DNA of 64,000 bases from Syntrophorhabdaceae bacterium. GTDB taxonomy: Bacteria; Desulfobacterota; Syntrophorhabdia; Syntrophorhabdales; Syntrophorhabdaceae. Of the stretch, positions 21,838 through 48,626 are shown piece after piece (positions within the stretch are counted from its first letter, which is position 1; each line of letters opens with the position of its first letter). The stretch is taken from positions 288,001-352,000 of the forward strand of contig CAXXUO010000002.1 in assembly GCA_963666485.2 (NCBI GenBank), in the 5' to 3' direction. Made by a program: the position numbers and the translations under genes. Below the pieces are notes generated by a model. The model had not been told where the DNA came from, did no database searches, and was given only the letters and a program-made list of their open reading frames with translations.

Positions 21838-21854
21838 GACATTTCCCGGCTCAC

Positions 21855-21884
21855 ATGGGTCCCTTATAGTCAGGGGCCCATTTA
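21855..21884 (+). terminator. probable intrinsic terminator after the porin
   Basis: Hairpin ATGGGTCCCT-TATAGTC-AGGGGCCCAT followed by a short T run. Confidence 0.5.
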
Positions 21885-21953
21885 ACCCTGCCGGCCGACA
21901 ATCGTTCGCTTGTTTTCCCGGGCGGCATATACTACAATTCTAGCATTCACGGG

Positions 21954-23666
21954 ATGACACGAGAAGGTTCAACGAAGAGTAAAGCCAGAACAGCACAGGT
22001 CTTAAGGCTCCTGCACGCATTGCTTTCAGATATCGCCGGGCCGGAGATCAGGCGGCTTGTCACCGCCGCCCTTTTCATTTGTCTCTCCACTTTTGGTTCC
22101 ATCGCCGGGCCTTTCCTCATAAAAGAGATCATAGATGTCGCGCTTCCGGCGAGGGATGTCCGCCTCCTCGGCATTTACTCGGTACTCCTGCTCCTGACGA
22201 ATGCGGTTGCGCTCGTTTTCTGGTCCATCCATTCCCGTTTCGCCATACGCTCATCCGAAAGGATCTTTCTGAAATTCCGCGAAAAGCTTGTTTCCGCCGT
22301 CTTGCGGAAGAGGCTCGATTTCTTCTCCCGGTACGGGTCGGGGGATATCCTTACGAGAGTTAATAACGACCTCGACTTTATCAGCCTTTTTCTCCATCAG
22401 ACGGTGCTGCGCTGCCTGGCGTTTTCCGTTTTCTCGATCGTCCTCCTGGCCGGGCTCATTATCTGGAACTGGCGGCTGGGCCTCACATTCCTGCTGACCC
22501 TTCCCTTTCTCCAGTTCTACGCCTGGAAAACATACGAGCCCGCGGCGAAACATTTCAGGTTATCCAAGGAGAAACTTTCATCGCAGAGCGAGACCCTTCT
22601 CGATATCCTCGCCGGCGTCCCTGAACTGAGGTTCTACCAGCAGGGCCGGGAGGCGGTCCGGCGCTTCCGGCGCAACGCGGAGGCATATACCGAACAAAAT
22701 ATCCGGACGCTCATGATCAGTGATCATTTTTCGAACGGGCTCGATTTTCTCGGGGTACTGGTGCGGCTCCTGCCGTTCATCGTCGGCGGCTATCTTATCT
22801 GCCTCGGCTCATCCGACATTACGATAGGCATGCTCGTTGCCTATTTTGTCATATTCTTCCGCCTCGCGCTCCAGATATTCGCCATTTTTCAAGGCATCCT
22901 TGCATCCGCACAGGCGCTGCCCTCATTGCAGCGCCTGAAAGAACTCCTGGATTTTCCCGAAGATACCGAGCCCGAAGAGTTCGGCATCGATGAGGTCCCT
23001 GACGCGACCGATATTGAATTTAACGATGTCTCGTTCGCTTATCCGAACGGTCATCCCGTTTTTACAGGCCTCAACCTCCGTGTCAGCCAGGGAGAAAAGG
23101 TGGCCATCATGGGCCAGAGTGGATCCGGCAAAAGCACGCTCGCGCAGCTGATCACGCGGTTCCTTGCCCCGAGTTCCGGCCATGTGCTTTTCGGAGGCAA
23201 GGATGTCAGATCGTACCCCCTGGCGTTTTACCTGAGCTTTTTCGCCTATGTCCGGCAGGAGGCCCATTTATTCAAGGTCAGTTTCAAGGACAATATCGCG
23301 ATGGGGTGGTACGGGGTCCCCCTGGACCGCATCAAGGAAGCGGCGTCCCTTGTCCGCATGAACGACGTAATCGAGCGATTGCCGATGCACTATGACACCG
23401 TGTATGCCGAGGACGGCACGAATCTTTCCGGCGGGCAGAAACAAAGGATCGCTCTCGCGCGGGCGCTTATCCGGGACCCCCATATCCTGGTCCTCGACGA
23501 ATTCACCTCCGGGCTCGACCCCCAGGTGGAAAAAGAGATACTTGACGACATGTTCGCATTGTTCGAGAAACAGACGATCATATGCATAACCCATAAACAA
23601 TCGGTCGCCGACAGGTTTCAGAGGACCATTACGATCGGCCAGGCCGTGCACTCTCCCATTTCGTGA
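21954..23666 (+). CDS. ABC exporter, fused permease/ATP-binding protein
   Basis: N-terminal TM domain (SGDILTRVNNDL); Walker A GQSGSGKS, signature LSGGQKQRIALAR, Walker B ILVLDEFTS, H-loop ITHK. Confidence 0.93.
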   Translation: MTREGSTKSKARTAQVLRLLHALLSDIAGPEIRRLVTAALFICLSTFGSIAGPFLIKEIIDVALPARDVRLLGIYSVLLLLTNAVALVFWSIHSRFAIRSSERIFLKFREKLVSAVLRKRLDFFSRYGSGDILTRVNNDLDFISLFLHQTVLRCLAFSVFSIVLLAGLIIWNWRLGLTFLLTLPFLQFYAWKTYEPAAKHFRLSKEKLSSQSETLLDILAGVPELRFYQQGREAVRRFRRNAEAYTEQNIRTLMISDHFSNGLDFLGVLVRLLPFIVGGYLICLGSSDITIGMLVAYFVIFFRLALQIFAIFQGILASAQALPSLQRLKELLDFPEDTEPEEFGIDEVPDATDIEFNDVSFAYPNGHPVFTGLNLRVSQGEKVAIMGQSGSGKSTLAQLITRFLAPSSGHVLFGGKDVRSYPLAFYLSFFAYVRQEAHLFKVSFKDNIAMGWYGVPLDRIKEAASLVRMNDVIERLPMHYDTVYAEDGTNLSGGQKQRIALARALIRDPHILVLDEFTSGLDPQVEKEILDDMFALFEKQTIICITHKQSVADRFQRTITIGQAVHSPIS

Positions 23667-23713
23667 GATAATGGGACGCAATAATTCATGAGTTCATTGA
23701 GGAGGAATATTAC

Positions 23714-24700
23714 ATGATCAAATTGACGCCGGATGAGGTCAGGGAACGTTTCGGGAAATTCTATTATGAATCCTTCCTCACAATAGTGGATAGTGAAAAA
23801 AGTAAGATCGAGATAGTCGAAACCTTCGGCAATTATCCCGGCAGTGCGGAATGGACTGCGATAAACAGGTGCCGGGCAGGAGGAATAATCGAGTCCTATG
23901 AAATATACGGGCAGACATCGTATATCAGGGCCAGGCTGGGCGAATCTCCCGTTCATTTCGGGCCCGCGGATGCCGAGCAGGGCGGACAGGCGCTGCAGGG
24001 GGCGCTGGTCGAAGGTGACCGGGTCAGGACAAAATGGATCGGCATCGCAGGCATGAGCCTGAGCACATGCGGTTCCCTGACGCAGGCCCCGGGGGTCATC
24101 GAAGCGTGGTACCCCTCCGAAGACGACCTCAATGTCGGGGGCAATAAGACAGGGCGTGTCGAGATCATCTCTCCGGCGTACGAAAAAATAAGCTTCGGTA
24201 TTGACGATACGGACGACCCGAGCGGCGGGGCAACATTCGCGCTTATAGTGAACGCGCGGCTCGAGGCGGGCAAGATCCCCGGGGTACACCCTCTTATGGT
24301 CAGGTTTGCCCAGTTGCTGCCGAAGTGCCCTTATAAAACGACGAACTGTACGTCGTCATTTATGTCCTTCGCGGTCAGGCCGGGTACAGCCCGGAAGGTC
24401 ATCGATGTCATCGTGGACATGGTCAGGTCTCAATCACGCTCCGATGATGCCGCAATCGCCGTGCTGAGCGGTATAGGTGTGCCCGGGAACCTGGTTGCCT
24501 TCGGGTGGGATGCGAAAAGGCGCATGATCTCGCTCGACGAGGCATATGCGTTGGATGGCAAAGAAGGGGTTGATCTGATCCCCGTGGGACCCGGCAAAAA
24601 GGGGCTGATCGGCGCATTGGCTGCACTTGGCCTCTCCGAAGAAAAATATGCCGCCGCCCTCGAAAATGATAAAGGTTTTGACCTTATCAGAAGATGGTAG
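23714..24700 (+). CDS. methanogenesis marker protein 11 (Mmp11) homologue, TiaS-N-like GIDDTD domain
   Basis: N-terminal region ..IEIVE..EW..NR.RAGG, GGQAL..VEGD.V.T.W.GIAG, QAPGV; then SFGIDDTD..GGATF, QL.P.CP.KTTNC.S and GLIGALAALG. Recognised from family memory, not from a search. Confidence 0.75.
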   Translation: MIKLTPDEVRERFGKFYYESFLTIVDSEKSKIEIVETFGNYPGSAEWTAINRCRAGGIIESYEIYGQTSYIRARLGESPVHFGPADAEQGGQALQGALVEGDRVRTKWIGIAGMSLSTCGSLTQAPGVIEAWYPSEDDLNVGGNKTGRVEIISPAYEKISFGIDDTDDPSGGATFALIVNARLEAGKIPGVHPLMVRFAQLLPKCPYKTTNCTSSFMSFAVRPGTARKVIDVIVDMVRSQSRSDDAAIAVLSGIGVPGNLVAFGWDAKRRMISLDEAYALDGKEGVDLIPVGPGKKGLIGALAALGLSEEKYAAALENDKGFDLIRRW

Positions 24701-24725
24701 AAAACGACCGCTTTAGGACTGTTCC

Positions 24726-26231
24726 GTGGAACCTTTCGCTGACAATTCAACGCTGATCGTACCGAACGATCTTTTTTATATGCCCCTCATCCAGGCTTTT
24801 ATATCTGAGGTTGCAAACAGGATGGGATTCAGCAAGCGTGACATGTCCATGATGATGGTCGCTGTCGAAGAAGCGGTCGTGAACGTGGTCAGGCATGCCT
24901 TTGAGCCCGGTGAGAAAACAACCTTTCAGGTCATTGTTGCACCGGGCAATATGAACTTAACGGTCATTATCAAAGACAAGGGACTGCCGTATTCACCTGG
25001 CATCGTGCCCGATTATAACCCCCCGTCCGATATTTATGACGCAGCCAATGCCGGGCTTGGCTTATATCTTATAAGGAAGGGCGTTGACGAAATATTTTTC
25101 AATAACCTGGGCCGGGAAGGCAAAGAACTGCACCTTGTCAAACATGTTCCGTACCGCAGTGTCCAGGAGATACACACCGAAACCGAACTTGAACGTTTCC
25201 CTGAACCTGTCGTAACAGGACCGGCCAAACAAAAGTCCTTTTCCATCCGCCCGATAGAACCGTCCGAGGTTTACGACGTGTCAAGGCTGTTTTACCGGAC
25301 GTACGGGTATACATACGGCGTCGATACGATCTATTACCCTGAAAAACTCGCCCAAAGCCACGCCGATGGAACGATAACATCCGTGGTGACTGTCGGGGAA
25401 GATGGCCGCCTCGTCGGGCATGCCGCACTTGTGCGCGATGGCAGGGAAGACAGGATAGCCGAGCTGGCAATGGCTGTTGTCGAGCCCTCGTACAGGGGGC
25501 ACGGATGTCAAAACCTGATGACCCTGCGCCTCGTTGAGGAAGCGAAGAAGGAAGGCCTCGCCGGGATATACAGCAAGGCCGTCACCAATCACATGTACGC
25601 ACAGAAAGCCGGGGAGAAAGCGGGATTCAAACGGTGTGCGCTTGTCGCCGGTGTGATCCCCGCAGACAGGATATATAAGGGAATGGACGCTGCCTTAACC
25701 CAGCGCGGATCGGTGGTCTTTGGGTACAAGGCGGTTGGCGACCCGGGGAATATCATGGTGTTTGCACCGTCAAAACACAGCGCGATCATCCAGAAGACGT
25801 ACGGGGCATTGGGGATAGACCGGGTCTTCGCGGAAGGGCCCCGGAAAGAGCAGGAGGCCGATGAGGAGCCAGGGGACGTCAGGGTCGCCGTTATTCCCGG
25901 ATTCAACCGTGGGACAATTGAGGTCAAGAAATACGGAAAGCATACAGCGGTGCAGGTGCACACCATCCTCAAGATGCTTTGTTACCAGAAGGTCGACCAG
26001 ATAACGCTTTATCTCAATTCCCACGATCCGGCCATATGTGGTCTGATCGACACATTTGAAAACATGGGGTTCTTCTACGCAGGCATCCTGCCCTTTTCGC
26101 ACGTGGGAGACGCGCTGCTGCTCCAATATCTCAACAATGCGCCCATCGATTACGACAAGGTTTACGTGGCATGCGAGATGGGCCGCGAGATCCTGGAATA
26201 TGTGAGATCATGCGATCCTAACAACCGGTAG
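24726..26231 (+). CDS. fusion of RsbW/SpoIIAB-like anti-sigma kinase (HATPase_c) and GNAT acetyltransferase domains
   Basis: N box VEEAVVNVVRHAF, G1 IKDKG, G2 GLGLYLI; then GRLVGHAAL, AVVEPSYRGHG, AVTNH.YAQK, GFFYAGILP; GTG start. Confidence 0.85.
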   Translation: MEPFADNSTLIVPNDLFYMPLIQAFISEVANRMGFSKRDMSMMMVAVEEAVVNVVRHAFEPGEKTTFQVIVAPGNMNLTVIIKDKGLPYSPGIVPDYNPPSDIYDAANAGLGLYLIRKGVDEIFFNNLGREGKELHLVKHVPYRSVQEIHTETELERFPEPVVTGPAKQKSFSIRPIEPSEVYDVSRLFYRTYGYTYGVDTIYYPEKLAQSHADGTITSVVTVGEDGRLVGHAALVRDGREDRIAELAMAVVEPSYRGHGCQNLMTLRLVEEAKKEGLAGIYSKAVTNHMYAQKAGEKAGFKRCALVAGVIPADRIYKGMDAALTQRGSVVFGYKAVGDPGNIMVFAPSKHSAIIQKTYGALGIDRVFAEGPRKEQEADEEPGDVRVAVIPGFNRGTIEVKKYGKHTAVQVHTILKMLCYQKVDQITLYLNSHDPAICGLIDTFENMGFFYAGILPFSHVGDALLLQYLNNAPIDYDKVYVACEMGREILEYVRSCDPNNR

Positions 26232-26232
26232 A

Positions 26233-26332
26233 CCACACACACCCCTCGTCATCCACACACACCCCTCGTCATCCACACACCACCGTCGTCATCCACACAC
26301 CACCGTCGTCATCCACACACCACCGTCGTCAT
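26233..26332. repeat. five tandem 20-bp repeats
   Basis: 2 x CCACACACACCCCTCGTCAT then 3 x CCACACACCACCGTCGTCAT, with no spacers. Confidence 0.95.
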
Positions 26333-26473
26333 CCCGGTGCTTGACACCGGGATCCAGTGTCTTTGTCCTTTCTTTTTTATTTCCGGTATAAGCGATCTCA
26401 GACTGTGCAATAACCACATGCAAGACGGATATGAGAGAAATCCTGGATCCCGGTGTCAAGCACCGGGATGACG
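26327..26473. repeat. REP/MITE-like palindromic element (31-bp perfect inverted repeats)
   Basis: CGTCATCCCGGTGCTTGACACCGGGATCCAG (26327-26357) and its exact reverse complement (26443-26473); each arm has an internal hairpin ATCCCGGTG-CTTGA-CACCGGGAT. Confidence 0.85.
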
Positions 26474-27901
26474 TGAATTGGTAGAAGCCCTTCTATTTAT
26501 TTTCCCGAGCAGCGAAAAAATACATGCGACAAAACAGCACAATGCGCCCGCCAGGTATGCGTAACGGAAGCCCGGCAATGCGGATTGTGCGGTCAGTTTT
26601 CCGACGAGATCGCTCCCGCCGGACACACCCGAGGAAAAGATCGCCTCTAAAACGGTGACCCCGAGCACCATCCCGAGATTGTTGACCGTGTTGAACAGTC
26701 CCGAGGACACCCCGCGTTTATCCGGGGGCGCGTATGTCATGATCTGGTTATTGTTTGGTGAAAAAAACAGGACAAAGGAAAGCGCAAGCCAGACGAGATA
26801 TACGAATACCGTGGCATAGCCTCCCCGGGAAAGCGATAACGCAAATGTCAGGACGCAGGCCGTGGCGGACAGTGTGGCAATGCTGCATAACAGTGCGGGG
26901 TTTACCCGGTCTGAAAGCCGGCCGGCCGCAGGAGACAGAGCAACATAAATGACCGAATAGGCTATGAGGACCATTCCCGTCTGCTGCGCGTTGAGCCCCA
27001 TTACCACGTCGAGATAAAATGGCAGAAGGATGCCGTTCCCGGATATGAGCATATAGGCGAAGAATGTCGCTATAAGGGCGAATGTAAAATGAGGACGGGA
27101 AAAAAGGCGTATGTCGAGAAGCGGGTCATCGTGCCGCAGTTCCCACCAGGCAAAGAACCCGAGCGATATGAGGGCCAACCCCAAACAACCGACAGTCTCC
27201 GGCGACAACCCCCGGGTATTGAGATGATTGATACCCCATATGAAGAAGGCAAGTCCCGCGAAACTTACTGCGGCACCCGTAAAATCAAACGGCTGGCCCT
27301 CCCCTCGAACCGTCTTGCCGCCACGGTCATCAGGCCCCGGAATGAATCTGCTGCCCGCTGCAATTGCTGCTATACCGACAGGGACGTTGATAAAGAATGC
27401 CCAGTTCCATGAAAGGTATCCCGTCACGATCCCGCCGACGGGAGCGCCTGTCGCCACGCCGAGGGCCGATGCGGTCGAGGTGATGCCGAACGCCCATCCC
27501 GTCCTTTCGGGCGGCAAAAGCTGGGAGATTATCGCAAAGCTGACGGCAAGAAGCATCGAGGCGCCGATCCCCTGGATAACGCGGCACAGGATAAGCATCG
27601 TGAGATCATGAGACAGCCCGCACAAGAGCGAGCCCACCGTGAAAACCGCGTACCCTGCGATGAACACGCGTTTCAATCCTATCCTGTCGCCGAGCTTTCC
27701 AAAAAGCAGCAGCGTTGTCGTGATAACGAGAAGATAGGATGAGAGTACCTGGGAAGCATCTGACGATGACATACCGAGCGAACGGGAGATCGTCGGCAGG
27801 GAAACGTTGACCATGTAATTATTGAGGCGCACAAGGAATGAGCTGAACGCCACGCTCATCACGATCAGAAAATAGGCATACGTACGGTTTTGGGCGGCCA
27901 A
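26456..27901 (-). CDS. MFS exporter, DHA2 (EmrB/QacA) family
   Basis: VNVSLPTI, motif A GKLGDRIGLKR, RVIQGIGA, WAFFINVPVG, FDFTGA, PLLDIRLF; TTG start. Confidence 0.92.
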   Translation of the reverse strand: MAAQNRTYAYFLIVMSVAFSSFLVRLNNYMVNVSLPTISRSLGMSSSDASQVLSSYLLVITTTLLLFGKLGDRIGLKRVFIAGYAVFTVGSLLCGLSHDLTMLILCRVIQGIGASMLLAVSFAIISQLLPPERTGWAFGITSTASALGVATGAPVGGIVTGYLSWNWAFFINVPVGIAAIAAGSRFIPGPDDRGGKTVRGEGQPFDFTGAAVSFAGLAFFIWGINHLNTRGLSPETVGCLGLALISLGFFAWWELRHDDPLLDIRLFSRPHFTFALIATFFAYMLISGNGILLPFYLDVVMGLNAQQTGMVLIAYSVIYVALSPAAGRLSDRVNPALLCSIATLSATACVLTFALSLSRGGYATVFVYLVWLALSFVLFFSPNNNQIMTYAPPDKRGVSSGLFNTVNNLGMVLGVTVLEAIFSSGVSGGSDLVGKLTAQSALPGFRYAYLAGALCCFVACIFSLLGKINRRASTNSRHPGA

Positions 27902-31716: not shown

Positions 31717-31888
31717 CCCACTGTAAGTAATGCACTATGGATTAATTATGTCAAAATAATTTTGATCATATCAAGGCCTGTTTCCTCTTTTCAACGATCA
31801 TTGATGCCGTTTGTCAACATCGGACGACAGACGCGCCCTATCCTGCCGATTAAACTTGAGGTCAAAAAAAGAGTATAAGGATGACGCT

Positions 31889-33640
31889 ATGGGCCTAGGC
31901 AGCGACCTGTTCAGAAAAAAATCGGTTTCATCCGTTTTGTCATCAGATTACGAGGGTACAGCCGGAAACGGCGAGGCGAGTCTTGTCAGGGCGCTTGGCG
32001 TACGGGACCTGACCGCCCTCGGGATCGCAGCGATCATTGGCGCCGGGATCTTTTCGGCCATAGGAAATGCGGCGTACTGGGGTGGTCCGGCAATAATCTT
32101 TCTCTTCATTTTTACAGCCTTTGCCTGCGGGTGTACCGCCATGTGCTACGCTCAGTTCGCTTCCATTATCCCGATATCGGGGTCCGCGTATACCTATGCC
32201 TATGTTGTCTTCGGTGAACTGGCCGCGTGGATCATGGGGTGGGACCTGCTTATGGAATATGCGATCGGCAATATAGCCGTGGCGATCTCCTGGAGCAACT
32301 ATTTTGTCGAACTTCTGGCCGGCTACAATATTGCCATCCCGGATTTCCTTGTCATCGACTACAGGTCAGCATTAAGCGGCGCCGAGGTCATTCAGGGGCA
32401 TCTCGCCTCCGGCCATACCATGGACACCATCGCGGGATTGCCGGGGGCAACGCTCCTTATGCGGGCTTTTTCAGCGTGGCAGGGTGCGCCCGTCGTGTTC
32501 GGGTACAGGATAATTTTCAATCTGCCGGCACTTATAATCATACTCATGGTCACCGTGCTCATTTATATCGGCATACAGGAATCGAAGCGCGTGTCCAACG
32601 CGATGGTCCTCGTAAAGGTCCTCACGATAATCCTCGTCATCGTAGCGGGTTCTTTTTATATACGGCCTGCGAACTGGATGCCCTTTGCGCCAAACGGCCT
32701 CGATGGCGTCATGAAAGGGGTTTCGGGGATCTTCTTCGCATATATAGGCTTCGATGCCCTGTCGACGACTGCGGAGGAGTGCAGGGACCCGCAACGGGAC
32801 CTCCCCCGGGCAATGTTCGGCGCATTAGGGGTATGCACGGTGCTCTACGTACTGCTTGTCCTCGTTCTTACCGGGATGGTCCATTACAGCAAACTCCAGG
32901 TCGGCGACCCTCTCGCGTTTGCCTTTGGCAAACTCGGCGCCAACGTGCAATGGCTTATGGGGATCATAGCCGCAAGCGCGGTCGTCGCGATGGCATCGGT
33001 TCTTCTCGTGTTCATGCTGGGGCAGCCCCGCATATGGATGGCCATGAGCCGTGACGGGCTTCTCCCCCCGGCATTCTCAGCGATACACCGGAAGTTCAGG
33101 ACGCCCTGGCTGGCTACCATCATGACGGGCCTGTGCGTGGGGGTCCCGTCTTTGTTCATGAACCTCAACGAGGTCACAGACCTGTGCAGTATCGGCACCC
33201 TTTTTGCCTTCAGTGTCGTGTGTGCGGGCACCCTTATATTCGACATTACCGGTCACAAAGGGACAGGCAAGTTCCATGTGCCCTATATTAACTCACGGTA
33301 TGTATTCACCCCCGCCCTGGTCATCGTCGTCGCGGTCTATTTCTCCTTATGCCCGCAAAAACTGATCCTTTTTCATGGCATCCAGCGCATCGGGATCGCG
33401 AGCCCGGTTATCATCTTTGCGTTTTTCAGCCTTGTCCTCTGCTATTTTTCCGTGACGCGCCAGCTCTCCCTTATACCTCTCATAGGGCTCGAAAGCTGTA
33501 TGTACCTTATGACCGAGCTTACCATGAGTTCCTGGCTCAGATTTACGATCTGGATGGGCTTTGGACTGGCGATCTATTTCTTTTACAGCCGGAACAGGAG
33601 CAAGCTCCGCACTGTCATGAAGGGTCCGCTTCCCGAATAG
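31889..33640 (+). CDS. APC-family amino acid permease (CAT/YfnA-like)
   Basis: LFRKK, GIAAIIGAGIF, SGSAYTY, FFAYIGFDA.ST.AEE..DPQRDLP, QPRI..AMSRDGLLP; start set to MGLGS. Confidence 0.93.
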   Translation: MGLGSDLFRKKSVSSVLSSDYEGTAGNGEASLVRALGVRDLTALGIAAIIGAGIFSAIGNAAYWGGPAIIFLFIFTAFACGCTAMCYAQFASIIPISGSAYTYAYVVFGELAAWIMGWDLLMEYAIGNIAVAISWSNYFVELLAGYNIAIPDFLVIDYRSALSGAEVIQGHLASGHTMDTIAGLPGATLLMRAFSAWQGAPVVFGYRIIFNLPALIIILMVTVLIYIGIQESKRVSNAMVLVKVLTIILVIVAGSFYIRPANWMPFAPNGLDGVMKGVSGIFFAYIGFDALSTTAEECRDPQRDLPRAMFGALGVCTVLYVLLVLVLTGMVHYSKLQVGDPLAFAFGKLGANVQWLMGIIAASAVVAMASVLLVFMLGQPRIWMAMSRDGLLPPAFSAIHRKFRTPWLATIMTGLCVGVPSLFMNLNEVTDLCSIGTLFAFSVVCAGTLIFDITGHKGTGKFHVPYINSRYVFTPALVIVVAVYFSLCPQKLILFHGIQRIGIASPVIIFAFFSLVLCYFSVTRQLSLIPLIGLESCMYLMTELTMSSWLRFTIWMGFGLAIYFFYSRNRSKLRTVMKGPLPE

Positions 33641-33708
33641 GACAAATCTATGCCGGCCGGCGCATCAACCTTGTGATAGAAACCGCGATATGGTAAAAAT
33701 CCGTTATC

Positions 33709-34875
33709 ATGCCCATTCAAACGGCGAAAACCATTGACTCAGGCGAATTGCCGGCTGCGAAAAAAGTCCAGCGGATGTCGTACCTCGACAATCTCCGGCT
33801 CCTTTTTACCCTGCTCGTCATCGTCCACCATATATGCCTCACCTACACGGGGGAAAGAGGCTGGTATTGTTACGAGATTATCAATGACCCGTTTACGAAC
33901 CTCGTCATGGTCCTTCTCATGACCACAGGCAGGAATTGGGTCCTGCAATTTTTCTTTCTCCTGTCGGGATATTTCACGCCGGGGTCCCTCGACAGGAAAG
34001 GCCTCCAGGTATACATCAAGGAACGCCTTATCCATATCGGAATACCTCTTGCCATTTTCTGGTTTTTGATCCGGCCGATACTCTATTACATTACGAATAA
34101 GAACAAATTGCCGTATTCATTTCTCGAAGGCCTTTTTACCCTGAAGCTTGCTTCACCGGGACAAGCATGGTTCCTGGAGGTACTTCTCATTTTTTCGGTC
34201 ATCTATGGCCTGCTGTGGTATGTACGCAAACCCCGGACGGGCCCGGAAAGGAAGGAAATGCCGTTCCCTTCGACCGGCGCCATTTTCCTGTTTATATGTG
34301 GCCTTTCGATCATAACGTTCATCATCCGTATGTTTCTGCCGGGAGATATGCAGGTATTGTACTTGCGCCTGGGCAATTACGCGGATTACATTGCATTCTT
34401 CGCGCTGGGAATAGTGGGGTACCGCAACAAATGGCTCGATAAGCTATCCGACCGGACAGGGCTTCAATGGACCCTCATAACGGCAGCCGCGTTTATCGTG
34501 TACTGTGCGTTCGTCACAAACTCATGGGCATCACACGAAAGCCTGGCCTATTTGCGCGGGGGATCATCCGTCAAGACATTTATTACGACCTGGCTTGGGA
34601 CGCACATCGCGATCGGCATCTCTATCAGTTTTACGTATCTTTTCAGGAAATTCGTGAATTTTAAGTCAGCGCTCCTCAAGGCAATGGCAGCCGAGGCGTA
34701 TCCCGTGTTTATCTTTCATGCACCCGTCGTCATCGCCGTAACATATGCCGTTCATGACCTCGCGTCGTGGCCGTTTTTGAAATTCAGTTCAAATTTCGTG
34801 CTATCGACTGCCATATGCTTTCTCGTCTGCCGATACGTCGTACGTAAGATACCGTATGTAAATAAGGTAGTCTGA
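33709..34875 (+). CDS. acyltransferase family 3 (OpgC/OafA-like) membrane protein
   Basis: YLDNLR...LVIVHH, FFLLSGYF, ERL..IGIP, WFL..LL, Y.VFIFH.PV. Confidence 0.88.
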   Translation: MPIQTAKTIDSGELPAAKKVQRMSYLDNLRLLFTLLVIVHHICLTYTGERGWYCYEIINDPFTNLVMVLLMTTGRNWVLQFFFLLSGYFTPGSLDRKGLQVYIKERLIHIGIPLAIFWFLIRPILYYITNKNKLPYSFLEGLFTLKLASPGQAWFLEVLLIFSVIYGLLWYVRKPRTGPERKEMPFPSTGAIFLFICGLSIITFIIRMFLPGDMQVLYLRLGNYADYIAFFALGIVGYRNKWLDKLSDRTGLQWTLITAAAFIVYCAFVTNSWASHESLAYLRGGSSVKTFITTWLGTHIAIGISISFTYLFRKFVNFKSALLKAMAAEAYPVFIFHAPVVIAVTYAVHDLASWPFLKFSSNFVLSTAICFLVCRYVVRKIPYVNKVV

Positions 34876-36726
34876 TCAATCATTGCCATCTTCTGCCTCG
34901 ACGTATGCGTACCCTTTCCCCCAACCATATCCCGGTTCTTTTTCTATGGACAGGAGATCATGTATTCTCCTGGCGGCACAGATAATGATAATGAAGATGA
35001 GGAACATGATGAGGGCCGACAGGGCTGCAAGCAGGTAGAGCCGGTTCGGCAGGTAATTTACCGTAATATTTATATAGCCTGCCCAGAGTGTGATCACTCC
35101 CATTGCCATCCCCGGCAGGAGCGTTATCCAGACATATTTCTTTTTACCCAGGCGTATCAGCATCGTGCTCGTGATGATAAGGGCGCAGGACGCGAGCAGC
35201 TGGTTGCTTATCCCGAAAAGCGGCCATATCGTCGTTATGGACCCGGTGTACAGCAGATAGCCCCACATGAAGGTGAAAGCAACGCCGCACGTTATCATCC
35301 CGGGGATCCAGTTGTGGTCGTTGAATTTCGGGATGAACCTGCCGGTCATCTCCTGCAGGAGGAACCTGCCGGCCCGCGTTCCCGCGTCGATGAGCGTCAG
35401 GATGAACACGGCTTCGAACATGATGGCAAAGTGGTACCAGTAGGACATCATCCTGTCCATTGCTGGTATCTTTGAAAATATGTACGAGATCCCCACGGCG
35501 AGGGATACGGCGCCGCCCGGCCGTGCCGCGAGATTTTCATGGATCATTTCCGAGAACCAGGGAAGGTCGACCGGGGTCATGCCGAGCCCTCTATACATTT
35601 CCGCGGATGAGTTTATTGCGAAATAATCAGCCGGAACGAGAACGCATGCGGCTATAAGGGCCATCATGGCAACGATCCCTTCGAAAAGCATTGCGCCGTA
35701 CCCGACGAAGAGAATGTCTCTCTCGCTGGCTATCATCTTGGGCGTCGTGCCTGACGATATGGTCGCGTGGAACCCCGAAATGGCCCCGCATGCGATTGTT
35801 ATAAAGATAAAGGGAAAGACACTGCCCGGTATGACAGGGCCTCCGCCGTATACAAATTCAGTAAACGCCGGCATCTGGAACGACGGCCTCAAAAATACAA
35901 TGCCGACCGCGAGCGCACAGATCGTCACGGTCTTGAGGAACGTCGACAGGTAATCCCGCGGTGCGAGGAGAAGCCAGACGGGGAGCACCGATGCCAGGAA
36001 GGCATACGCGGGAAGAAACAAAGAGATCTGCTTTTTCGACAGCGTAAAGAATTTTCCCAGGACCGGGTTTTCAACGAGCGAATTCCCGAAGAACACGGCC
36101 AGGAACAAAAGGGCTATCCCTATAATGCTTGCCACGACAATCCCCGTATTTCCCGGCCTTCGCATAATGATCCCCATAATGACGGCGGCCGGTATGGTTG
36201 TCGCGACGACGAGGGTGCCCCAGGGACTGTCCGATACTGCGTTCGTCATTGCGATCGACGCGCCCGCGATCGTCAGCACGAGGATGAGCAGGAATGCAAG
36301 AGAAGACACCGCACCCGCTGTTTTCCCGATCTCATTCTTCGCAATATTGGCAAGGCTCTCGCCATTGTGCCGGACGGAAGCAAAAAGAATGACGATGTCG
36401 TGAACGGCCCCGCCGAGGACGGCCCCGATAAGGATCCACAGTGCACCCGGCAGATAACCGAACTGTGCCGCAAGAACGGGCCCCGCGAGCGGCCCTGCTC
36501 CTGCTATTGCGGCAAAGTGATGTCCAAAAAGAACGAACCGGTTTGTCTTGTGATAGTCGATGCCGTCGGCCATAGCGATGGCCGGTGTAGGCCGGGACCC
36601 ATCAAGCTCGAGGACCTTCCTGGCTATAAACAAACCGTAGAATCGATAGGCGATCGCGAAGATGCACAGCGCAGCTAACACAAAAGCAGCAGGGGTAGCG
36701 AGAATTGAATGGTTGAACGGGTTCAT
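34876..36726 (-). CDS. cstA: carbon starvation protein CstA (peptide/pyruvate transporter)
   Basis: LFGHHFAAIAGAGP, SVLPVWLLLAPRDYLSTF, ITIACGAISGFHA, RPGGAVSLAVG, IWPLFGISNQLLA. Confidence 0.95.
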   Translation of the reverse strand: MNPFNHSILATPAAFVLAALCIFAIAYRFYGLFIARKVLELDGSRPTPAIAMADGIDYHKTNRFVLFGHHFAAIAGAGPLAGPVLAAQFGYLPGALWILIGAVLGGAVHDIVILFASVRHNGESLANIAKNEIGKTAGAVSSLAFLLILVLTIAGASIAMTNAVSDSPWGTLVVATTIPAAVIMGIIMRRPGNTGIVVASIIGIALLFLAVFFGNSLVENPVLGKFFTLSKKQISLFLPAYAFLASVLPVWLLLAPRDYLSTFLKTVTICALAVGIVFLRPSFQMPAFTEFVYGGGPVIPGSVFPFIFITIACGAISGFHATISSGTTPKMIASERDILFVGYGAMLFEGIVAMMALIAACVLVPADYFAINSSAEMYRGLGMTPVDLPWFSEMIHENLAARPGGAVSLAVGISYIFSKIPAMDRMMSYWYHFAIMFEAVFILTLIDAGTRAGRFLLQEMTGRFIPKFNDHNWIPGMITCGVAFTFMWGYLLYTGSITTIWPLFGISNQLLASCALIITSTMLIRLGKKKYVWITLLPGMAMGVITLWAGYINITVNYLPNRLYLLAALSALIMFLIFIIIICAARRIHDLLSIEKEPGYGWGKGYAYVEAEDGND

Positions 36727-37113
36727 GCCTGGCTCCTTTTAGCGGTTGGTACCGGGTCACCGCGCGATACCTGCATGATAACTTCCATCCGGAAATGATG
36801 ATGTTCGATAGCACGGTGAACTGCCATATGACCACATGTCCTGTGATCGTGAACAGGCTATCATGACGTGTGCGTTGACGGTTGTCGTCCATCTTAAGGG
36901 TTCTTCATAAACGTCCGTTTATTTACAATTCCACGAATGTCCCGGAGAAGGCCGGACGCATGGACGAACCTTCCGCACGATAGTCATATCTTTTTCATTT
37001 TGGTTGACGGGATTAGTCAATACCAGACTACAGAAATTCTCCCGGCTCCGGGCTATGATGGCTACGTTCAAAGACAATGATGTGCAGTCATACGGGCATA
37101 CGGAGGATATACC

Positions 37114-38832
37114 GTGACAATTCAAAGCCTTACGCGCAGGAAAGATGTCACCCTCATTATTTCGGAAAATTCCCGGGCACATGAAAAGAGCGATGCCGGG
37201 ACGGGCCTTCGCAAAGAACTCGGTGTGACCGATCTGGTGGCCTTTGGTATTGCACTCATCGTTGGAGCAGGGATCTTTTCAACCATCGGCAATGCCGCCT
37301 ATTGGGGAGGGCCTGCGGTTATATTCCTCTACATATTCATGGCGATTGCATGTGCCTGCACGGCCCTGTGCTATGCCGACTTCGCATCCCGCCTTCCCGT
37401 TGCCGGATCGGCGTATACATACTCCTACGTGGCTTTCGGGGAGATCGTCGCCTGGGTGATCGGCTGGACCCTGATAATGGAGTACACGATAGCCGCAAGC
37501 GCGGTCTCGATATCATGGAGCGATTACTTCACAGGTTTTATCTCGGGGTACGGTTTTAATGTGCCGCATTTCATGACCATGGACTATTTCAGTGCCTCGA
37601 AGGGCGCCCGGAGAATAACAGAGCTGTTAAGCCAGGGGCACACCCTCGAGTCTTTACGAAATACGGCGGGCATGGGAGGGTCATTACAGGCGTACGCAGC
37701 GTGGGAGTCGGCCCCGCGGTTCCTCGGGGTCCCGGTCGTTTTCGATCTGCCCGCGTTGTGCATCGTTTCCCTTATCACCATTTTAAGCTACGTCGGCATA
37801 CGCGAATCGAAGCGCGTCACGAACGGCATCGTCGCCATCAAGATCGCAACCATTCTGTTCGTCATCGTTGCAGGTGCCTTCTATATCAGGCCCGAAAACT
37901 GGAGTCCTTTCGCGCCAAACGGCATGAGCGGGGTTCTCAAAGGCGCTTCCGCCGTATTTTTTGCCTACCTGGGATTCGATGCCATATCGAATACCGCTGA
38001 AGAATGCAGGAACCCCCGGCGGGACCTCCCGCGCGGCATCATATATTCGCTCCTGATCTGTACGCTTCTTTACGTCGCGCTTGCGCTGGTTTTGACCGGA
38101 ATTGTCAATTACAGAAACCTGCGCGTGGGCGACCCCCTTGTAGCGGCCTTTGCCGCAGACGGCGCCAACCTGCAGTTCGTATCAGGCATTGTGGGCGCCA
38201 GCGCCGTCGTGACGATGGCGACGGTCGTCCTTGCCCTTATCATCAGCCAGCCCCGGGTGTTGATGTCCATGGGGAGGGATGGTCTTTTGCCGTCCATTTT
38301 TTCCTCGATCCACCCGAAGTTCCGCACACCGTGGTTTTCGACCATTCTTACAGGGATCGTCGTGGCCGTGCCGACGCAATTTATGAGCCTGACAGCGGTC
38401 ACTGACCTGACGAGTATCGGGACGCTCTTTGCTTTCATTCTCGTTTGCGGAGGCGTTCTCGTTCTTGACCGAAACCCGAATTTCCCCCGGGGAAGTTTCA
38501 GGCTCCTCTATATCAATTCGCAGTATATATTCACGCCCGTGATCGCAGCCATCATCGCGGGCCTCGCCATACACGACCCGAACGACGTGAGTGTATTCAA
38601 ACATCCGCACCTTATTGCATTCTACGGGGCCACCATATGCCTCGCGTACGTAAGCATCCGGAAAAAACTGTCCCTCATCCCCCTCATGGGCGTCGAGATA
38701 TGTTTCTATCTCATGACGGAACTGGGCAGCACCACGTGGACCGGCTTTATCATCTGGTTATCGATCGGCCTTCTCTGCTACTTCCTCTACGGAAGAAAAA
38801 ACAGCAGGTTGAACGGCCATGCACAGCACTAA
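37114..38832 (+). CDS. APC-family amino acid permease, paralogue of 31889-33640
   Basis: GIALIVGAGIF, AGSAYTY, FFAYLGFDA, NPRRDLP, RDGLLP; GTG start after GGAGG. Confidence 0.93.
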   Translation: MTIQSLTRRKDVTLIISENSRAHEKSDAGTGLRKELGVTDLVAFGIALIVGAGIFSTIGNAAYWGGPAVIFLYIFMAIACACTALCYADFASRLPVAGSAYTYSYVAFGEIVAWVIGWTLIMEYTIAASAVSISWSDYFTGFISGYGFNVPHFMTMDYFSASKGARRITELLSQGHTLESLRNTAGMGGSLQAYAAWESAPRFLGVPVVFDLPALCIVSLITILSYVGIRESKRVTNGIVAIKIATILFVIVAGAFYIRPENWSPFAPNGMSGVLKGASAVFFAYLGFDAISNTAEECRNPRRDLPRGIIYSLLICTLLYVALALVLTGIVNYRNLRVGDPLVAAFAADGANLQFVSGIVGASAVVTMATVVLALIISQPRVLMSMGRDGLLPSIFSSIHPKFRTPWFSTILTGIVVAVPTQFMSLTAVTDLTSIGTLFAFILVCGGVLVLDRNPNFPRGSFRLLYINSQYIFTPVIAAIIAGLAIHDPNDVSVFKHPHLIAFYGATICLAYVSIRKKLSLIPLMGVEICFYLMTELGSTTWTGFIIWLSIGLLCYFLYGRKNSRLNGHAQH

Positions 38833-38856
38833 AAAAATACTATCAGGAGGCAGTTT

Positions 38857-40572
38857 ATGGAGATCAAAGGCAAACGGATTCTTGTCCTCGGCGGATACGG
38901 GGAAGTAGGGTCGGCTGTCTGCCGCCAACTTCTCATTTATGAACCGGAAATGCTGGTCGTTACATCATTACGGCAATCAGAGGCACACGATGCAGCGAGG
39001 GAGCTGCAAGACGAATATCATTTGCCGTGTGAAATAAAACATGACTTCGGGAATCTTTTTGTCCGTTTCGAACATCGGGACAAGACGATAGACGCGATCA
39101 TCAAGGACCCGATGTTGCTGCGCCAGCTGGTCGATGACAACCTTGCCGAATTGAACAGGGAGATCCTCGGTTCGTCGACGCTGTACAGGCTCATAACCGA
39201 ATACAATCCGGATATCATCATCGATTGCATCAATACGGCGACGGCGCTGGCGTACAGGGATGTTTTCTACGCCTACAGCACGATGCGCGCGGACATGGCC
39301 GCTGGTGCTGCAAATGACGCCGCCGATGTCGGGTATTCGCTCCTTGCGACCATTGCTATTCCGCCGCTCATTCGCCACGTCCAGATCTTGAATGAGGCGA
39401 TGAAAAGGGTCGGCACCCAGGTTTATCTGAAAATAGGGACAACCGGTACCGGCGGAATGGGGCTTAATATACCGTTCACCCACGGGGAAGAAAGCCCGTC
39501 ACGGTTGCTCATGGCAAAGTCCGCACTTTCCGGCGCCCAAACAATGCTGCTCTTTACAATGAACAGGACGCCCGGCTGGCCGGTCATCAAGGAGATCAAG
39601 CCCGCTGCGATGATCGGATGGAAAGAGGTGGCAAAAGGTGCCATAACCCGCCCCGGGAAACAGTTCAACGCCTATGATTGTGATGGAACGGCGGCATATC
39701 CATTGACGCGGGGCCTCACGTTCCAGTTCAACGGGACGAAGCATGGCACACAGCTGCAGCAGAAGACGCTCGAAGGAATTTATGTCGATACGGGGGAGAA
39801 CGGGATATTCTCCCGTGACGAATTCAAGCTCATCACGGCACTCGGGCTTATGGAATTCGTTACGCCGGAAGAGATCGCCCATACCGCCATGCTTACGATA
39901 CTCGGTATCGATACATCGAAGGACGTCATCGGGGCAATTGAGGGAGCGGTCATGGACCCGAGCTACCAGGCCGGCTGCCTCAGGGACTCCGCAGTCAAGC
40001 GTATGGATGCCATGGGAAGACAGGGCGTCGGATATGGCTATTTAGGGCCGCATCCCACCAAACTTCTCTTTGAGGCAAGCCTTTTGCGCCAGTGCTTCGG
40101 AAATGTCGAGAACATCCTCGCCCTCACACCGGCGGAGCTTGCTTCGGCCCTGGAGGATTACGTTTATAACAACCAGGCATTCCGGATAAATCCGATCTCG
40201 ATCGGCATTCCCATTCTCGCGTCTGACGGGTCTAAACTTCTTTGCGCGACAAGGCCCAATCGGGACAAGAGCTGGGAAGTCGAACCCTGGGAGATAACCG
40301 ACGAGTCCATCGATACATTTGCCGCACGTGAATGGATAGACTTGAGGCCCCGCAACATGGCGCGGTGGCAGGACCGTTTCCGGAATGTTCTCGGTGAAGT
40401 GCTCTGTTCTTCTCTGTGCACAAGCTCCCGGTCCCACGGCGGAGAATGCATTGAAACACGGGATGGAGCAACACCGATCGATGCCGGCGAGGTCGTAGCG
40501 CGCGTCCTCATCGACGAGTTCGGTGGCGGCCGCAACAAGGCCTATACATCGGCGGGAGGAAAATACATATAG
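38857..40572 (+). CDS. large Rossmann-fold (SDR-like) oxidoreductase of unknown function
   Basis: N-terminal ILVLGGYGEVG dinucleotide-binding motif; IIDCINTAT; KIGTTGTGGMGLNIP.THGEE; CAGGAGG RBS. Confidence 0.75.
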   Translation: MEIKGKRILVLGGYGEVGSAVCRQLLIYEPEMLVVTSLRQSEAHDAARELQDEYHLPCEIKHDFGNLFVRFEHRDKTIDAIIKDPMLLRQLVDDNLAELNREILGSSTLYRLITEYNPDIIIDCINTATALAYRDVFYAYSTMRADMAAGAANDAADVGYSLLATIAIPPLIRHVQILNEAMKRVGTQVYLKIGTTGTGGMGLNIPFTHGEESPSRLLMAKSALSGAQTMLLFTMNRTPGWPVIKEIKPAAMIGWKEVAKGAITRPGKQFNAYDCDGTAAYPLTRGLTFQFNGTKHGTQLQQKTLEGIYVDTGENGIFSRDEFKLITALGLMEFVTPEEIAHTAMLTILGIDTSKDVIGAIEGAVMDPSYQAGCLRDSAVKRMDAMGRQGVGYGYLGPHPTKLLFEASLLRQCFGNVENILALTPAELASALEDYVYNNQAFRINPISIGIPILASDGSKLLCATRPNRDKSWEVEPWEITDESIDTFAAREWIDLRPRNMARWQDRFRNVLGEVLCSSLCTSSRSHGGECIETRDGATPIDAGEVVARVLIDEFGGGRNKAYTSAGGKYI

Positions 40573-46593: not shown

Positions 46594-47796
46594 CTATTTC
46601 TTTGCCATGGGATCGTATATTTTGTCTTTGATAAGGATGCCGGGCAATAGGGCGGCAGCCAGGTATGCAAGTGCGCAGGTGATGATACCCGCTCCGATTG
46701 AGCCTTCTACGGCGATCCAACCGATCATTGCAGGAGAGATGATGGAACCGATACGGCCGGCGTTGTACGATGTTGACATTGCCGTTCCCCGGACAACGGT
46801 GGGAAAGCTCTCGGCAAGGTACGTCGCGTTTATAGCGTATAGCCCCGCGTACAGTCCGCCGTAGATGAGCAGAAGCCATGCCGCGTTGGAACGTGTCGCG
46901 ACGATAATTATAAGCGGTATTGCAAAGCTGATGCACAGCCCGGTTATGACCCACATGCGCCGCCGGCCGAAACGGTCGGCAAGGATACCGATGACCGGCT
47001 TTGCAAGAATACCCATGGTGTAACTGGCAGCGAGGTACCACCCCATATTCTTGAGGTCGACATGGAGGTCCCGTACCAGGTAGCTCGGCAGCCATGTGCT
47101 TCCGCCGTAAAAACCAAACTGGAGAAAGACGGAGGTAATGCTCCAGAGAATGAACGTCCGGCGCAGCGAATTGTTATTCCAGATGATCGCAAATTCATTC
47201 TTTTTCCCGCCTGGCGCCGCCTTATGTGCCGATGACCAGCTCGCAGGGTCGGCGGCCTTTAAGAGCATACCGAGACAGACCATGCCCGGGATCGCCGAGA
47301 TAAAGAACAGGGGCCGCCACCCCCACGATGTGATGACAAGACCGGTAAACAGGGCCGCGATCACATAGCCCGTTGACCATCCGGCGATGAGCACGGACAG
47401 AACGGTGCCGCGTATCTTCGTGGGAACGTACTCGGCGGCGAGAACGTTGCCGACACTGTACACGGCGCCTATCCCCAGGCCGGATATTATCCTCATCGCC
47501 GCTATCTGCCAGTATTCCTGGCATACCCCGATGATCGCGGTGCCCAGGGAAAAAATGAGGACTGACCACCGGATCACGCGAACCCGCCCGATACGGTCGG
47601 CTGCCCATCCTGCCGTGATCCCGCCAATGCCCATTCCGATCAGGGTATACGTCCCCAGCATCCCGGCGAGGACCGTTGATATCTGGAGGTCTTTCATGAG
47701 AACCGGCAAGGCAAGGGCCAGGACCTGCAGATCTATGCCGTCCGCGACCATGGCCAGCGTCACGGCCGTTATGACGAACGCGGACCGCCTGTTCAT
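46594..47796 (-). CDS. MFS transporter, aromatic acid:H+ symporter-like
   Basis: ADGIDLQ, GWAADRIGRV, AEYVP..RG, GILADRFGRR, ESFPT.VRGT; its ATG overlaps the mtxX stop (ATGA). Confidence 0.9.
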   Translation of the reverse strand: MNRRSAFVITAVTLAMVADGIDLQVLALALPVLMKDLQISTVLAGMLGTYTLIGMGIGGITAGWAADRIGRVRVIRWSVLIFSLGTAIIGVCQEYWQIAAMRIISGLGIGAVYSVGNVLAAEYVPTKIRGTVLSVLIAGWSTGYVIAALFTGLVITSWGWRPLFFISAIPGMVCLGMLLKAADPASWSSAHKAAPGGKKNEFAIIWNNNSLRRTFILWSITSVFLQFGFYGGSTWLPSYLVRDLHVDLKNMGWYLAASYTMGILAKPVIGILADRFGRRRMWVITGLCISFAIPLIIIVATRSNAAWLLLIYGGLYAGLYAINATYLAESFPTVVRGTAMSTSYNAGRIGSIISPAMIGWIAVEGSIGAGIITCALAYLAAALLPGILIKDKIYDPMAKK

Positions 47797-48626
47797 TTTT
47801 TTGCAGGCAGGGTTTTTTTCGTTTTTGGCAAACCCGCCAATGCCGACGCACAGCATATCGCGTTATGGTACGTTCTGCCCGCCCGGGATGTGTCCACGTA
47901 AACAAGGTCGGCCCCGACAGCCGGGCCGCCCATTCCGGTCCCCTCCCCCACGAGACACAAAGAGCGGTAGATCAGGTTGCCGCTGATGCCGTCAGGGGCA
48001 AGGATGAAATTGTATTTTTCGATAGCTTCCTCGAAAAGGATATACATGCACGTCGCGTTGTACCCTTTCGCCGTGAGGATATCAGCGGCCTTCTCCGCGC
48101 TGCGTATGCTCCGGTCCGTTACCGCCGACCTGCCGATATCCCCTTTTCTCCCTCCGCCGAGGACCGCGATATTCTCATCGATCCCGAGCCGTCTCATGAG
48201 GTCCGCGCCAAGCTGGCCGAGCCTCACTTTTTCCCTGACCCCCCAGGCGTCATCGATACCGACCGGGGCGAAAAAGAACGGGGTAACATGCGGTGGCTGC
48301 AGTATCGCAAGGCGAAGGAGCTTCCTGATACCGTACTGTTCCTTGAGGGCCTTCATCAAAGGGTTTATGTCAAGGGACCCCCGGACGATGCCTGCCACTT
48401 CCCCTCTTTTGACCATCCCGACGAGTTCTGCCTCGGGGGATTGAGATACGACGTTTTCGATCCCGCCGGCCAGTTTTTCCCGGCTCACGATAACGACACG
48501 GGCGTACCCTAACTCTTGTGCTTTCTCGGCGCTCTCCAGGACCTTCTTTTCGTACCCTTTTTCTGCACCAATGGCGATCCGGGCCCGGGACATCCGTGCC
48601 CGGTCGATGATCAGATCGGTTATCAT
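47793..48626 (-). CDS. mtxX: MtxX / methanogenesis marker protein 4 homologue (phosphate acetyl/butyryltransferase fold)
   Basis: PE..LV..V..G.V...VRGSL, FFFAPVGIDD, AVLGGGR.GD.GRS, IL.EEAI, APDGISGNLIYRSL..VG.G..MGGP, YVDTSRA. Recognised from family memory, not from a search. Confidence 0.85.
   Translation of the reverse strand: MITDLIIDRARMSRARIAIGAEKGYEKKVLESAEKAQELGYARVVIVSREKLAGGIENVVSQSPEAELVGMVKRGEVAGIVRGSLDINPLMKALKEQYGIRKLLRLAILQPPHVTPFFFAPVGIDDAWGVREKVRLGQLGADLMRRLGIDENIAVLGGGRKGDIGRSAVTDRSIRSAEKAADILTAKGYNATCMYILFEEAIEKYNFILAPDGISGNLIYRSLCLVGEGTGMGGPAVGADLVYVDTSRAGRTYHNAICCASALAGLPKTKKTLPAKK

Follow-up and report, generated by a model that had tools for sequence, protein, structure and literature searches.

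Mmp11 and MtxX are two methanogenesis markers without an assigned function. The Mmp11 family is marker m17 (DUF1743-containing) of Adam et al. 2022, whose entry for it gives a "predicted ATPase" of indeterminate function, and whose remarks on MtxX hold that its function is not deducible from its distribution (PMC9635834). According to our own mapping, the family is probably also arCOG01116 of Borrel et al. 2014. The main text of the MtxX structure paper describes a phosphotransacylase fold in which the Ser and Arg of Pta are kept and the Asp base is absent, predicts an acidic and hydrophobic ligand, considers MtxX possibly essential in Methanococcus maripaludis, and closes by asking for the ligand; its synteny analysis names uppS, mmp12, mmp2 and mtxAH as neighbours, and the word "mmp11" appears 0 times in that main text (PMC12978539). 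In the literature, searched mostly outside subscription journals, we found no function for Mmp11, no link between Mmp11 and MtxX, and no bacterial report of either.

With regard to mechanism, a known relative of Mmp11 is TiaS, the tRNA-Ile2 agmatinylcytidine synthetase (NF040849; PDB 3amt, 3u02, 4rvz), the only relative with a solved structure. The TCKD domain of TiaS phosphorylates a carbonyl oxygen before amine attack, and also phosphorylates its own Thr18. The Ack/Pta, butyrate kinase/Ptb and FakAB/PlsX systems work in two steps, with acyl-phosphate formation by a kinase followed by acyl transfer on a Pta-fold enzyme.

The window, which is the whole stretch of 64,000 nucleotides analysed here, belongs to a bacterial genome of 3.77 Mb that is 99% complete (G000). 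It contains one member of each marker family, at a distance of 23 kb (Table 1). The gene under study is a bacterial variant of a known, uncharacterised family, for which a testable chemistry can be proposed.

Table 1. Features of the window that are relevant to the Mmp11-B gene, with their coordinates.
Feature	Position	Strand	Remarks
ABC transporter	21954..23666	+	exporter-type fold, membrane and ATPase parts, narrow subfamily; co-occurs with the Mmp11-B/mtxX pair
Shine-Dalgarno-like GAGGAGG	23699..23705	+	8 nt 5' of the ATG of the Mmp11-B gene; from sequence
Mmp11-B gene	23714..24700	+	328 aa, ATG start; N-terminal domain and TiaS-type kinase (TCKD) domain
N-terminal domain, aa 1-155	23714..24178	+	two similar beta-beta-alpha-beta-beta halves; pLDDT 93.4
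TCKD kinase domain, aa 156-317	24179..24664	+	3amt_A Z 22.1, Foldseek E 4.9e-9, phmmer E 1.7e-9 to 3u02
GIDDTD...GAT motif (D164, D165, T166, D167, T174)	24197..24235	+	alignment to the TiaS DDTD motif and Thr
KTTNC loop	24335..24349	+	contains Cys212; model confidence low at 209-211
HATPase_c_2 and GNAT protein	24726..26231	+	downstream in the same gene run; away from Mmp11-B in other bacterial loci
Two APC amino-acid permeases	31811-33640, 37114-38832		near the pair in some relatives; loosely associated island 31811..40572
Acyl_transf_3 protein	33709-34875		near the pair in some relatives; frequent in the genus even where the pair is absent
Rossmann reductase, PF27054, 571 aa	38857-40572	+	near the pair in some relatives; frequent in the genus even where the pair is absent
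MFS transporter	46594..47856	-	immediately follows mtxX, as it does in two related loci; closest model is an aromatic acid/H+ symporter, with a sub-cut-off score
Mmp4/MtxX homologue	47793..48626	-	phosphotransacylase fold, DTSR kept; TIGR03270 185.1 bits

Family assignment and structure of the window protein

The sequence-only reading had described an ORF of 328 aa with GIDDTD, GATF, KTTNC and GLIGALAA motifs, and all of these are present in the translation (aa 162-167, 172-175, 208-212 and 297-304). Against the Mmp11 profile TIGR03280, aa 18-312 align with positions 2-287 of the 292 in the profile, at 163 bits (E 8e-48), and the conserved positions of the family are kept (E36, G43, W47, G110/G113, G142-G143, DDTD, GAT, QL.P and T..NC). 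This full-length match over both domains places the protein in the broad Mmp11 family, which comprises paralogues A, B and C. However, the canonical Mmp11 equivalog (paralogue A) has a cut-off of 255.8 bits, which neither the window protein nor the 11 scanned relatives (155-212 bits) reach, and the host is not a methanogenic archaeon: the contig is bacterial, TilS is present and ftr is unmatched. In five methanogen genomes searched with TIGR03280, three paralogues are observed, namely A at 320-340 bits, B at 187-196 bits where intact, and the HTH-fused C at 107-126 bits. The window protein is paralogue B, here named Mmp11-B, which methanogens carry too; it groups with the sub-cut-off copies of Methanocellales, Methanomicrobiales and Methanomassiliicoccales, apart from A and C. 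In the order of a Methanomassiliicoccaceae record, all 61 genomes exhibit sub-cut-off copies only (184-232 bits), and the Methanomassiliicoccales-type copies sampled in our trees group with B; the TIGR03280 cut-off overlooks a whole methanogen order.

The description of the protein as an Mmp11 homologue is therefore right for the family and for both domains, but not for canonical Mmp11. As evidence against itself, the sequence-only reading had named a score below the Mmp11 cut-off combined with best hits in a broad bacterial GIDDTD family. The score is indeed below the cut-off, but the best hits are bacterial orthologues, followed by the B copies of Methanocellales. The short stand-alone bacterial TCKD proteins (~245-260 aa; L004-L008) have the G[IF]DDTD domain in common with Mmp11-B, but they match its C-terminal half only, at 28-30% identity, and exhibit no Mmp11 N-terminal domain and other neighbours. 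The gene beside the short protein in L007 and L008 presumably encodes, as judged by eye, a protein like the molybdenum-storage or amino-acid-kinase families. The C paralogues (L102-L106) are HTH-fused and have an Asn where A and B have Cys212; in L106, the gene follows a homoserine dehydrogenase gene.

In the AlphaFold model of the protein (pLDDT 90.5), the C-terminal half was found to be TiaS-like, as had been suggested from the sequence: aa 156-317 superpose on TiaS 3amt with an rmsd of 1.8 A over 154 residues, and both the TCKD fold and the ATP-site motif are present. In contrast, the TiaS domains beyond TCKD, which serve tRNA and agmatine binding, are absent, as the N-terminal domain and TCKD account for the whole model and no TiaS_FLD Pfam hit is observed. 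The TiaS model NF040849 matches aa 159-314 only, with 48.8 bits against the 600 needed over the whole protein. The protein further differs from TiaS in its N-terminal domain, in the Cys that replaces the Asn of the KT..N loop, and in its host, which has TilS. The residues D164, D165, T166, D167 and T174 occur in all of 20 bacterial copies; among 74 archaeal B and 56 A sequences, their conservation is at least 92%. T174 is aligned with the threonine that we take to be the one phosphorylated by TiaS. Cys212 is invariant in the same three sets of sequences and is an Asn in TiaS and Mmp11-C.

The N-terminal domain is the presumed substrate-binding domain. Its best structural match covers one half only (Z 6.8, rmsd 1.5, 51 residues). 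With the domain alone, Foldseek gave no match at E 0.001 and the fold searches gave nothing above background; the sole hit of its profile among PDB sequences was a weak one to a turret protein (E 0.011), and Atlas hits remained below 0.8. The Gly-rich loop of this domain (aa 110-121) is altered in the bacterial copies. The changes fixed in the bacterial clade within the presumed substrate region comprise the replacement of the archaeal GAGVGVAAC by GMSLSTCGS (113-121), C38F, D48T and W175F.

Origin of the gene and its partners in bacteria

The ORF is a genuine gene, its assembly is correct, and it evolves under purifying selection. Mmp11-B is a single-copy gene in G000 and lies on a 669-kb contig, surrounded by bacterial genes, with the ABC-transporter gene 47 bp upstream and the HATPase-GNAT gene 25 bp downstream, all on the same strand. 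The proposed check of read coverage against a chimeric assembly came out in favour of the locus: in each of two public runs, one contig (7.4 and 7.5 kb, respectively) spans positions 19000-26295 of the window, with zero differences and even depth. As the two runs represent one sample, this match bears on the assembly only and not on the spread of the gene, and the genes next to Mmp11-B recur in further bacterial genomes. Among six bacterial copies, dN/dS is ~0.05-0.10 (10 of 15 pairs with estimable dS), and dS exceeds 1.2 throughout, the synonymous sites being saturated, which indicates that the gene is functional and not newly arrived. A promoter scan remained at chance level (4 found, 5.7 expected).

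The nearest relatives of the protein, which are 58-90% identical, come from records named Syntrophorhabdaceae, Syntrophaceae, Syntrophus or delta proteobacterium, and the next ones by identity are those of Methanocellales (~50%) and Methanomicrobiales (39-48%). In a maximum likelihood tree of 23 rows (LG+G4), the bacterial copies form one clade (100/100), which is joined by Methanocellales and one further protein (100/99) and then by Methanomicrobiales (99/96), all inside B. A quick tree of 38 rows, with its root on A and C, agrees with it in shape; its row labelled L102C contains the L105 sequence. Forcing Methanocellales and Methanomicrobiales together without the bacteria was rejected (p-AU 0.02), for a group that was picked after the trees were seen. 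Four gut records named Bacteroides, Ruminococcus, Dialister and Prevotella (L078, L083, L085, L087) correspond to Methanomassiliicoccales-type contigs by gene order and DNA identity, probably through mis-binning, and were left out of the bacterial count.

As the bacterial copies form one clade beside Methanocellales, an old transfer of Mmp11-B from archaea to bacteria is well supported by the trees. The intermixing of families within the bacterial clade suggests later movement between bacteria. The earlier idea that the gene was acquired from a methanogen partner is thus retained for the methanogen origin but not for the partner, since the transfer would be old and common to a small bacterial clade rather than a recent gain from the partner of this organism. 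The suggested phylogeny with archaeal Mmp11 likewise placed the bacteria among archaeal copies, but within B, apart from A and C. The full-length gene is present in 3 of 61 relatives, including G000, and in 3 of 20 genomes of the genus. The Mmp11-B module was observed in 4 of 96 genomes in a survey of the order, and in G000 only in a draw of 401 genomes of the phylum.

The sequence-only reading had also expected the bacterial context to hint at the function of the family. The context is informative, but the informative neighbour, mtxX, lies outside the local operon, on the opposite strand; the ABC gene is informative together with it. The window MtxX is slightly below the TIGR03270 cut-off of 190 bits, whereas four bacterial orthologues pass it (191.9-210.2 bits). 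As in known Mmp4/MtxX proteins (PDB 9NZY), the DTSR motif and the cleft arginines are kept, and the protein is nested among archaeal MtxX; it differs from them in being bacterial. The bacterial MtxX sequences fall into a single clade (100/99), which is nested in a larger group (84/91) that includes Methanocellales. When identical loci are counted once, there are 9 distinct bacterial copies of Mmp11-B (the window, L011-L017 and L153), of which 7 have mtxX directly downstream and 8 have a member of the ABC-transporter subfamily in the fetched locus. This subfamily, with 12 database relatives of the window gene, occurs in 4 of the 96 genomes of the order (G000, G001, G002 and G623), and mtxX occurs in the same four and in G006, where a 1.6-kb contig comprises the 3' half of the ABC gene and ends inside mtxX. 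In G623, the Mmp11-B gene adjoins mtxX; the mtxX of G001 and one ABC copy of G002 are frameshifted. An archaeal origin of the ABC gene is unsupported, as no close match was found in five archaeal genomes with the window query. The link between Mmp11 and mtxX is well supported. A complex prediction of Mmp11-B with the window MtxX, the latter folded without an alignment, gave a score of 0.00, which speaks neither for nor against a complex.

A non-methanogenic bacterial lineage that took and kept exactly Mmp11-B and mtxX is a natural experiment linking the two markers. The host group lives alongside methane-making archaea, from which, as judged from the trees, the two intact genes were taken long ago. 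Mmp11-type and MtxX hits are no proof of a methanogen.

Gene context in archaea

The archaeal genomes profiled for A, B, MtxX and aks genes comprise groups other than class I methanogens. Among 151 genomes of one archaeal phylum (that of G455), 75 have mtxX, all 75 with an Mmp11-family gene, 6 have Mmp11 only and 70 have neither. Methane-type metabolism confounds this co-occurrence, as both genes follow it, and related genomes are not independent. In 10 of 10 Methanocellales-type genomes, typed by score, B is directly followed by the only mtxX. The order is reversed in G455 (L050), where mtxX is directly upstream of B, and in G510 it is paralogue A that adjoins mtxX. Nevertheless, B is not the obligate partner of MtxX, as it is present in only 26 of the 75 mtxX genomes, the rest having A- or C-type copies, and as none of the 58 Methanomicrobiales B loci contains mtxX. 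In G201, a distant MtxX (L114 1193-2014, 90 bits) lies between the halves of a split dikinase of the PEP-synthase/rifampin-phosphotransferase type, which is an unrelated kinase in the same position. In Methanomassiliicoccales, mmp11B was observed directly before uppS (L084 7992-9724); uppS is given as a neighbour of mtxX in Methanobacteria and Methanococci in the synteny part of the structure paper (PMC12978539).

Methanomicrobiales exhibit a gene run headed by B, with the order ftr-11B-11A-radical SAM-TPP enzyme-aksA-aksD-aksE-xcbA-like-aksF. The TPP enzyme is like IOR-alpha, and the aks homologues are homocitrate synthase, homoaconitase and homoisocitrate dehydrogenase, names based on similarity and on the presence of another LeuC-type gene at a separate site of that genome, the top models being shared Leu/Aks families. 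Over the 58 loci, 11A was found in 54, radical SAM in 52, the TPP enzyme in 51, aksA in 47, aksD in 46 and aksF in 42, some of the misses corresponding to short contigs. Elsewhere, 11A adjoins the TPP enzyme in L128, is near it in G061, and adjoins an MSMEG_0568-type radical SAM gene in L122, L123, L124, L125 and L129; a homoserine dehydrogenase gene lies upstream in L122, and cysteate synthase and ComDE follow in L129. The genes for 11A, radical SAM, TPP enzyme and aks enzymes are missing from all three Methanomicrobium loci, where 11B and the XcbA-like gene remain. No orthologue of 11A, radical SAM, homoaconitase or TPP enzyme was detected in the M. mobile genome, and 11B and mtxX are present; coenzyme B is listed among the requirements of M. 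mobile in a table of PMC10658910. Four archaea without detected mcrA (G501, G509, G510 and G521) carry Mmp11-A and mtxX, which either weakens a role tied to the coenzyme of MCR or points to coenzyme B use outside methanogens. In one of them, G521, mmp11A, radical SAM, cysteate synthase and ComDE lie in one stretch (L129 3117-8082).

Possible functions of Mmp11-B and MtxX

The final steps of coenzyme B synthesis comprise the formation of 7-mercaptoheptanoyl phosphate, amide formation with threonine, and phosphorylation, and we know of no enzymes assigned to them. Section 14.5 of PMC3087415, on coenzyme B synthesis, names only three enzymes, those of chain elongation. A carbonyl-activating kinase adjoining MtxX suggests the logic of Ack/Pta and its counterparts, although the kinase would be of the TCKD rather than the ASKHA fold and MtxX is without the catalytic Asp of Pta. 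Based on the chemistry of MtxX, the adjoining kinase and the final steps of coenzyme B synthesis that lack enzymes, our preferred reading, to which we give slightly less than even odds, is therefore that Mmp11 generates an acyl phosphate from which MtxX passes on the acyl group, coenzyme B being the leading product in archaea. The aks genes in the Methanomicrobiales runs, and the retention of 11B and mtxX by M. mobile, speak for the link to coenzyme B. The pairing offers a concrete assay of kinase and transacylase activity, and points to the end of coenzyme B synthesis.

The data show the identity, fold, origin, linkage and purifying selection of the gene; the following mechanism goes beyond them. 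Mmp11-B would act as an ATP-dependent kinase that activates carbonyls. The gene would have come with mtxX, as one unit of two genes, from a Methanocellales-like archaeon, and a few syntrophic bacteria would since have retained the unit and passed it among themselves along with one subfamily of ABC transporters. The N-terminal domain would bind a small molecule, a carboxyl or carbonyl oxygen of which the TCKD domain would phosphorylate with ATP; the resulting acyl phosphate could possibly be passed through Cys212. MtxX, which is without the base that Pta uses on CoA, would transfer the acyl group to an acceptor such as the amine of an amino acid. The archaeal job would most likely be a late step in coenzyme B synthesis or salvage, from 7-mercaptoheptanoate to N-acyl-threonine phosphate. 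The bacterial version may perform the same chemistry on an imported or exported acid, with a substrate that has probably drifted. The fixed changes at the presumed substrate site, the 23 kb between the two genes in the window and the rarity of the module count against the preferred reading. No match to ftr, radical SAM or XcbA-like proteins was found in G000, and the TPP enzyme gave partial matches only, so that de novo synthesis by the archaeal route is beyond this bacterium. None of the aks-like hits of G000 proved to be more than a leucine, lysine or TCA homologue. A role in methanofuran synthesis, considered on account of the ftr neighbour, was set aside because all 61 Methanomassiliicoccales-type genomes keep B, although the order is described as lacking the CO2-reduction pathway in the relevant part of PMC4153887. 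In its boldest form, which we consider quite unlikely, the favoured reading would have Mmp11 and MtxX join 7-mercaptoheptanoate to threonine and thereby complete coenzyme B, Mmp11-B serving for salvage. A few syntrophic bacteria, having obtained the unit from Methanocellales, would use it with a dedicated ABC transporter to synthesise, scavenge or recycle coenzyme B or a similar compound, which might serve their own heterodisulfide reductase as a thiol. If true, an archaeal methanogenesis coenzyme would have a place in bacterial metabolism.

The main rival, unlikely as we judge it, is sulfur transfer, in which the kinase would activate a carbonyl and Cys212, as a thiol or persulfide, would deliver sulfur in a thiolation step common to coenzymes M and B, with radical SAM and Mmp2, MtxX acting elsewhere. 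The invariant Cys212, together with the radical SAM gene beside Mmp11-A in five loci and in most of the Methanomicrobiales loci and the coenzyme M genes of L129, fits this reading equally well, and the XcbA-like gene remains beside 11B in Methanomicrobium. However, the radical SAM link is that of paralogue A, the bacteria took B and MtxX without radical SAM (none was found in G000 or G623), and the Cys could equally hold an acyl group or a metal.

We give little credence to a salvage of coenzyme B by the bacteria, in which methanogens would release coenzyme B or a precursor, the ABC transporter would import it, and the pair would complete it for the bacterium's own HdrABC, or degrade it for ATP. 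B and MtxX are what a methanogen requiring coenzyme B keeps, G000 has an hdrCBA-mvhD cluster, and the ABC subfamily tracks the pair genome by genome within the order. Nevertheless, most of these syntrophs manage without the gene, given its presence in so few genomes of the genus, HdrB is only 29.5% identical to the methanogen protein, the substrate site is changed, and searches of M. mobile and Methanocella genomes with the window query did not detect the ABC subfamily. Equally hard to credit is that the two genes have unrelated functions and moved together only as neighbours in the donor. The mtxX of most methanogens does have other neighbours in the published synteny (uppS, mmp2, mmp12, mtxAH; PMC12978539), and the genes are apart in the window and at a second G002 copy, but every module-bearing bacterial genome checked retains the two, although dS is saturated and the loci are rearranged, and their adjacency recurs in G455 and G510 in other arrangements.

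Less credible still is a stand-alone TiaS-like ligase, which would phosphorylate the carbonyl of a ring or an amide in a nucleotide, cofactor or RNA and attach an amine such as agmatine, MtxX being a passenger. TiaS is the only solved relative, and APC amino-acid permeases lie near the gene in several bacterial loci; however, the two proteins have the kinase domain alone in common, the model leaves no room for other TiaS domains, TilS does the same tRNA job in G000, and the transfer and retention of mtxX with the gene would be left unexplained. Mis-assembly or mis-binning of archaeal DNA, for which the four gut records set a precedent, is refuted by the long contig among bacterial genes, the identical independent contigs and the orthologues with the same neighbours in other bacterial records.

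Several other features of the window were noted. The Acyl_transf_3 protein and the PF27054 reductase were rejected as dedicated parts of the system, as they occur in 27 and 24 of the 96 genomes of the order, mostly without the pair. The reductase has no Pfam or NCBIfam hit and was assigned by Atlas to PF27054 (beta-methylindole-pyruvate reductase-like) with a score of 0.99. Between 24726 and 29572, the fused HATPase_c_2-GNAT gene faces a split pair of the same parts (27912-29054 and 29099-29572), and RsbW-like and GNAT proteins recur in G000. The intergenic region 26290-26475 contains a palindromic repeat, with two inverted arms after short direct repeats and ~150 BLAST hits across G000, which looks like a REP- or MITE-type element. 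A 1921-aa autotransporter with long Gly-rich repeats is encoded at 14361-20126 (-). A 480-aa membrane protein without a family hit (50344-51786, +) precedes an HpaB-type gene and a CoA transferase, in a cluster likely to be of the 4-hydroxybutyrate type. The secreted porin-like proteins at 20524-21837 (+) and 62991-63908 (-) have no family hit, are 83% identical to each other, and belong to a set of four copies in G000.
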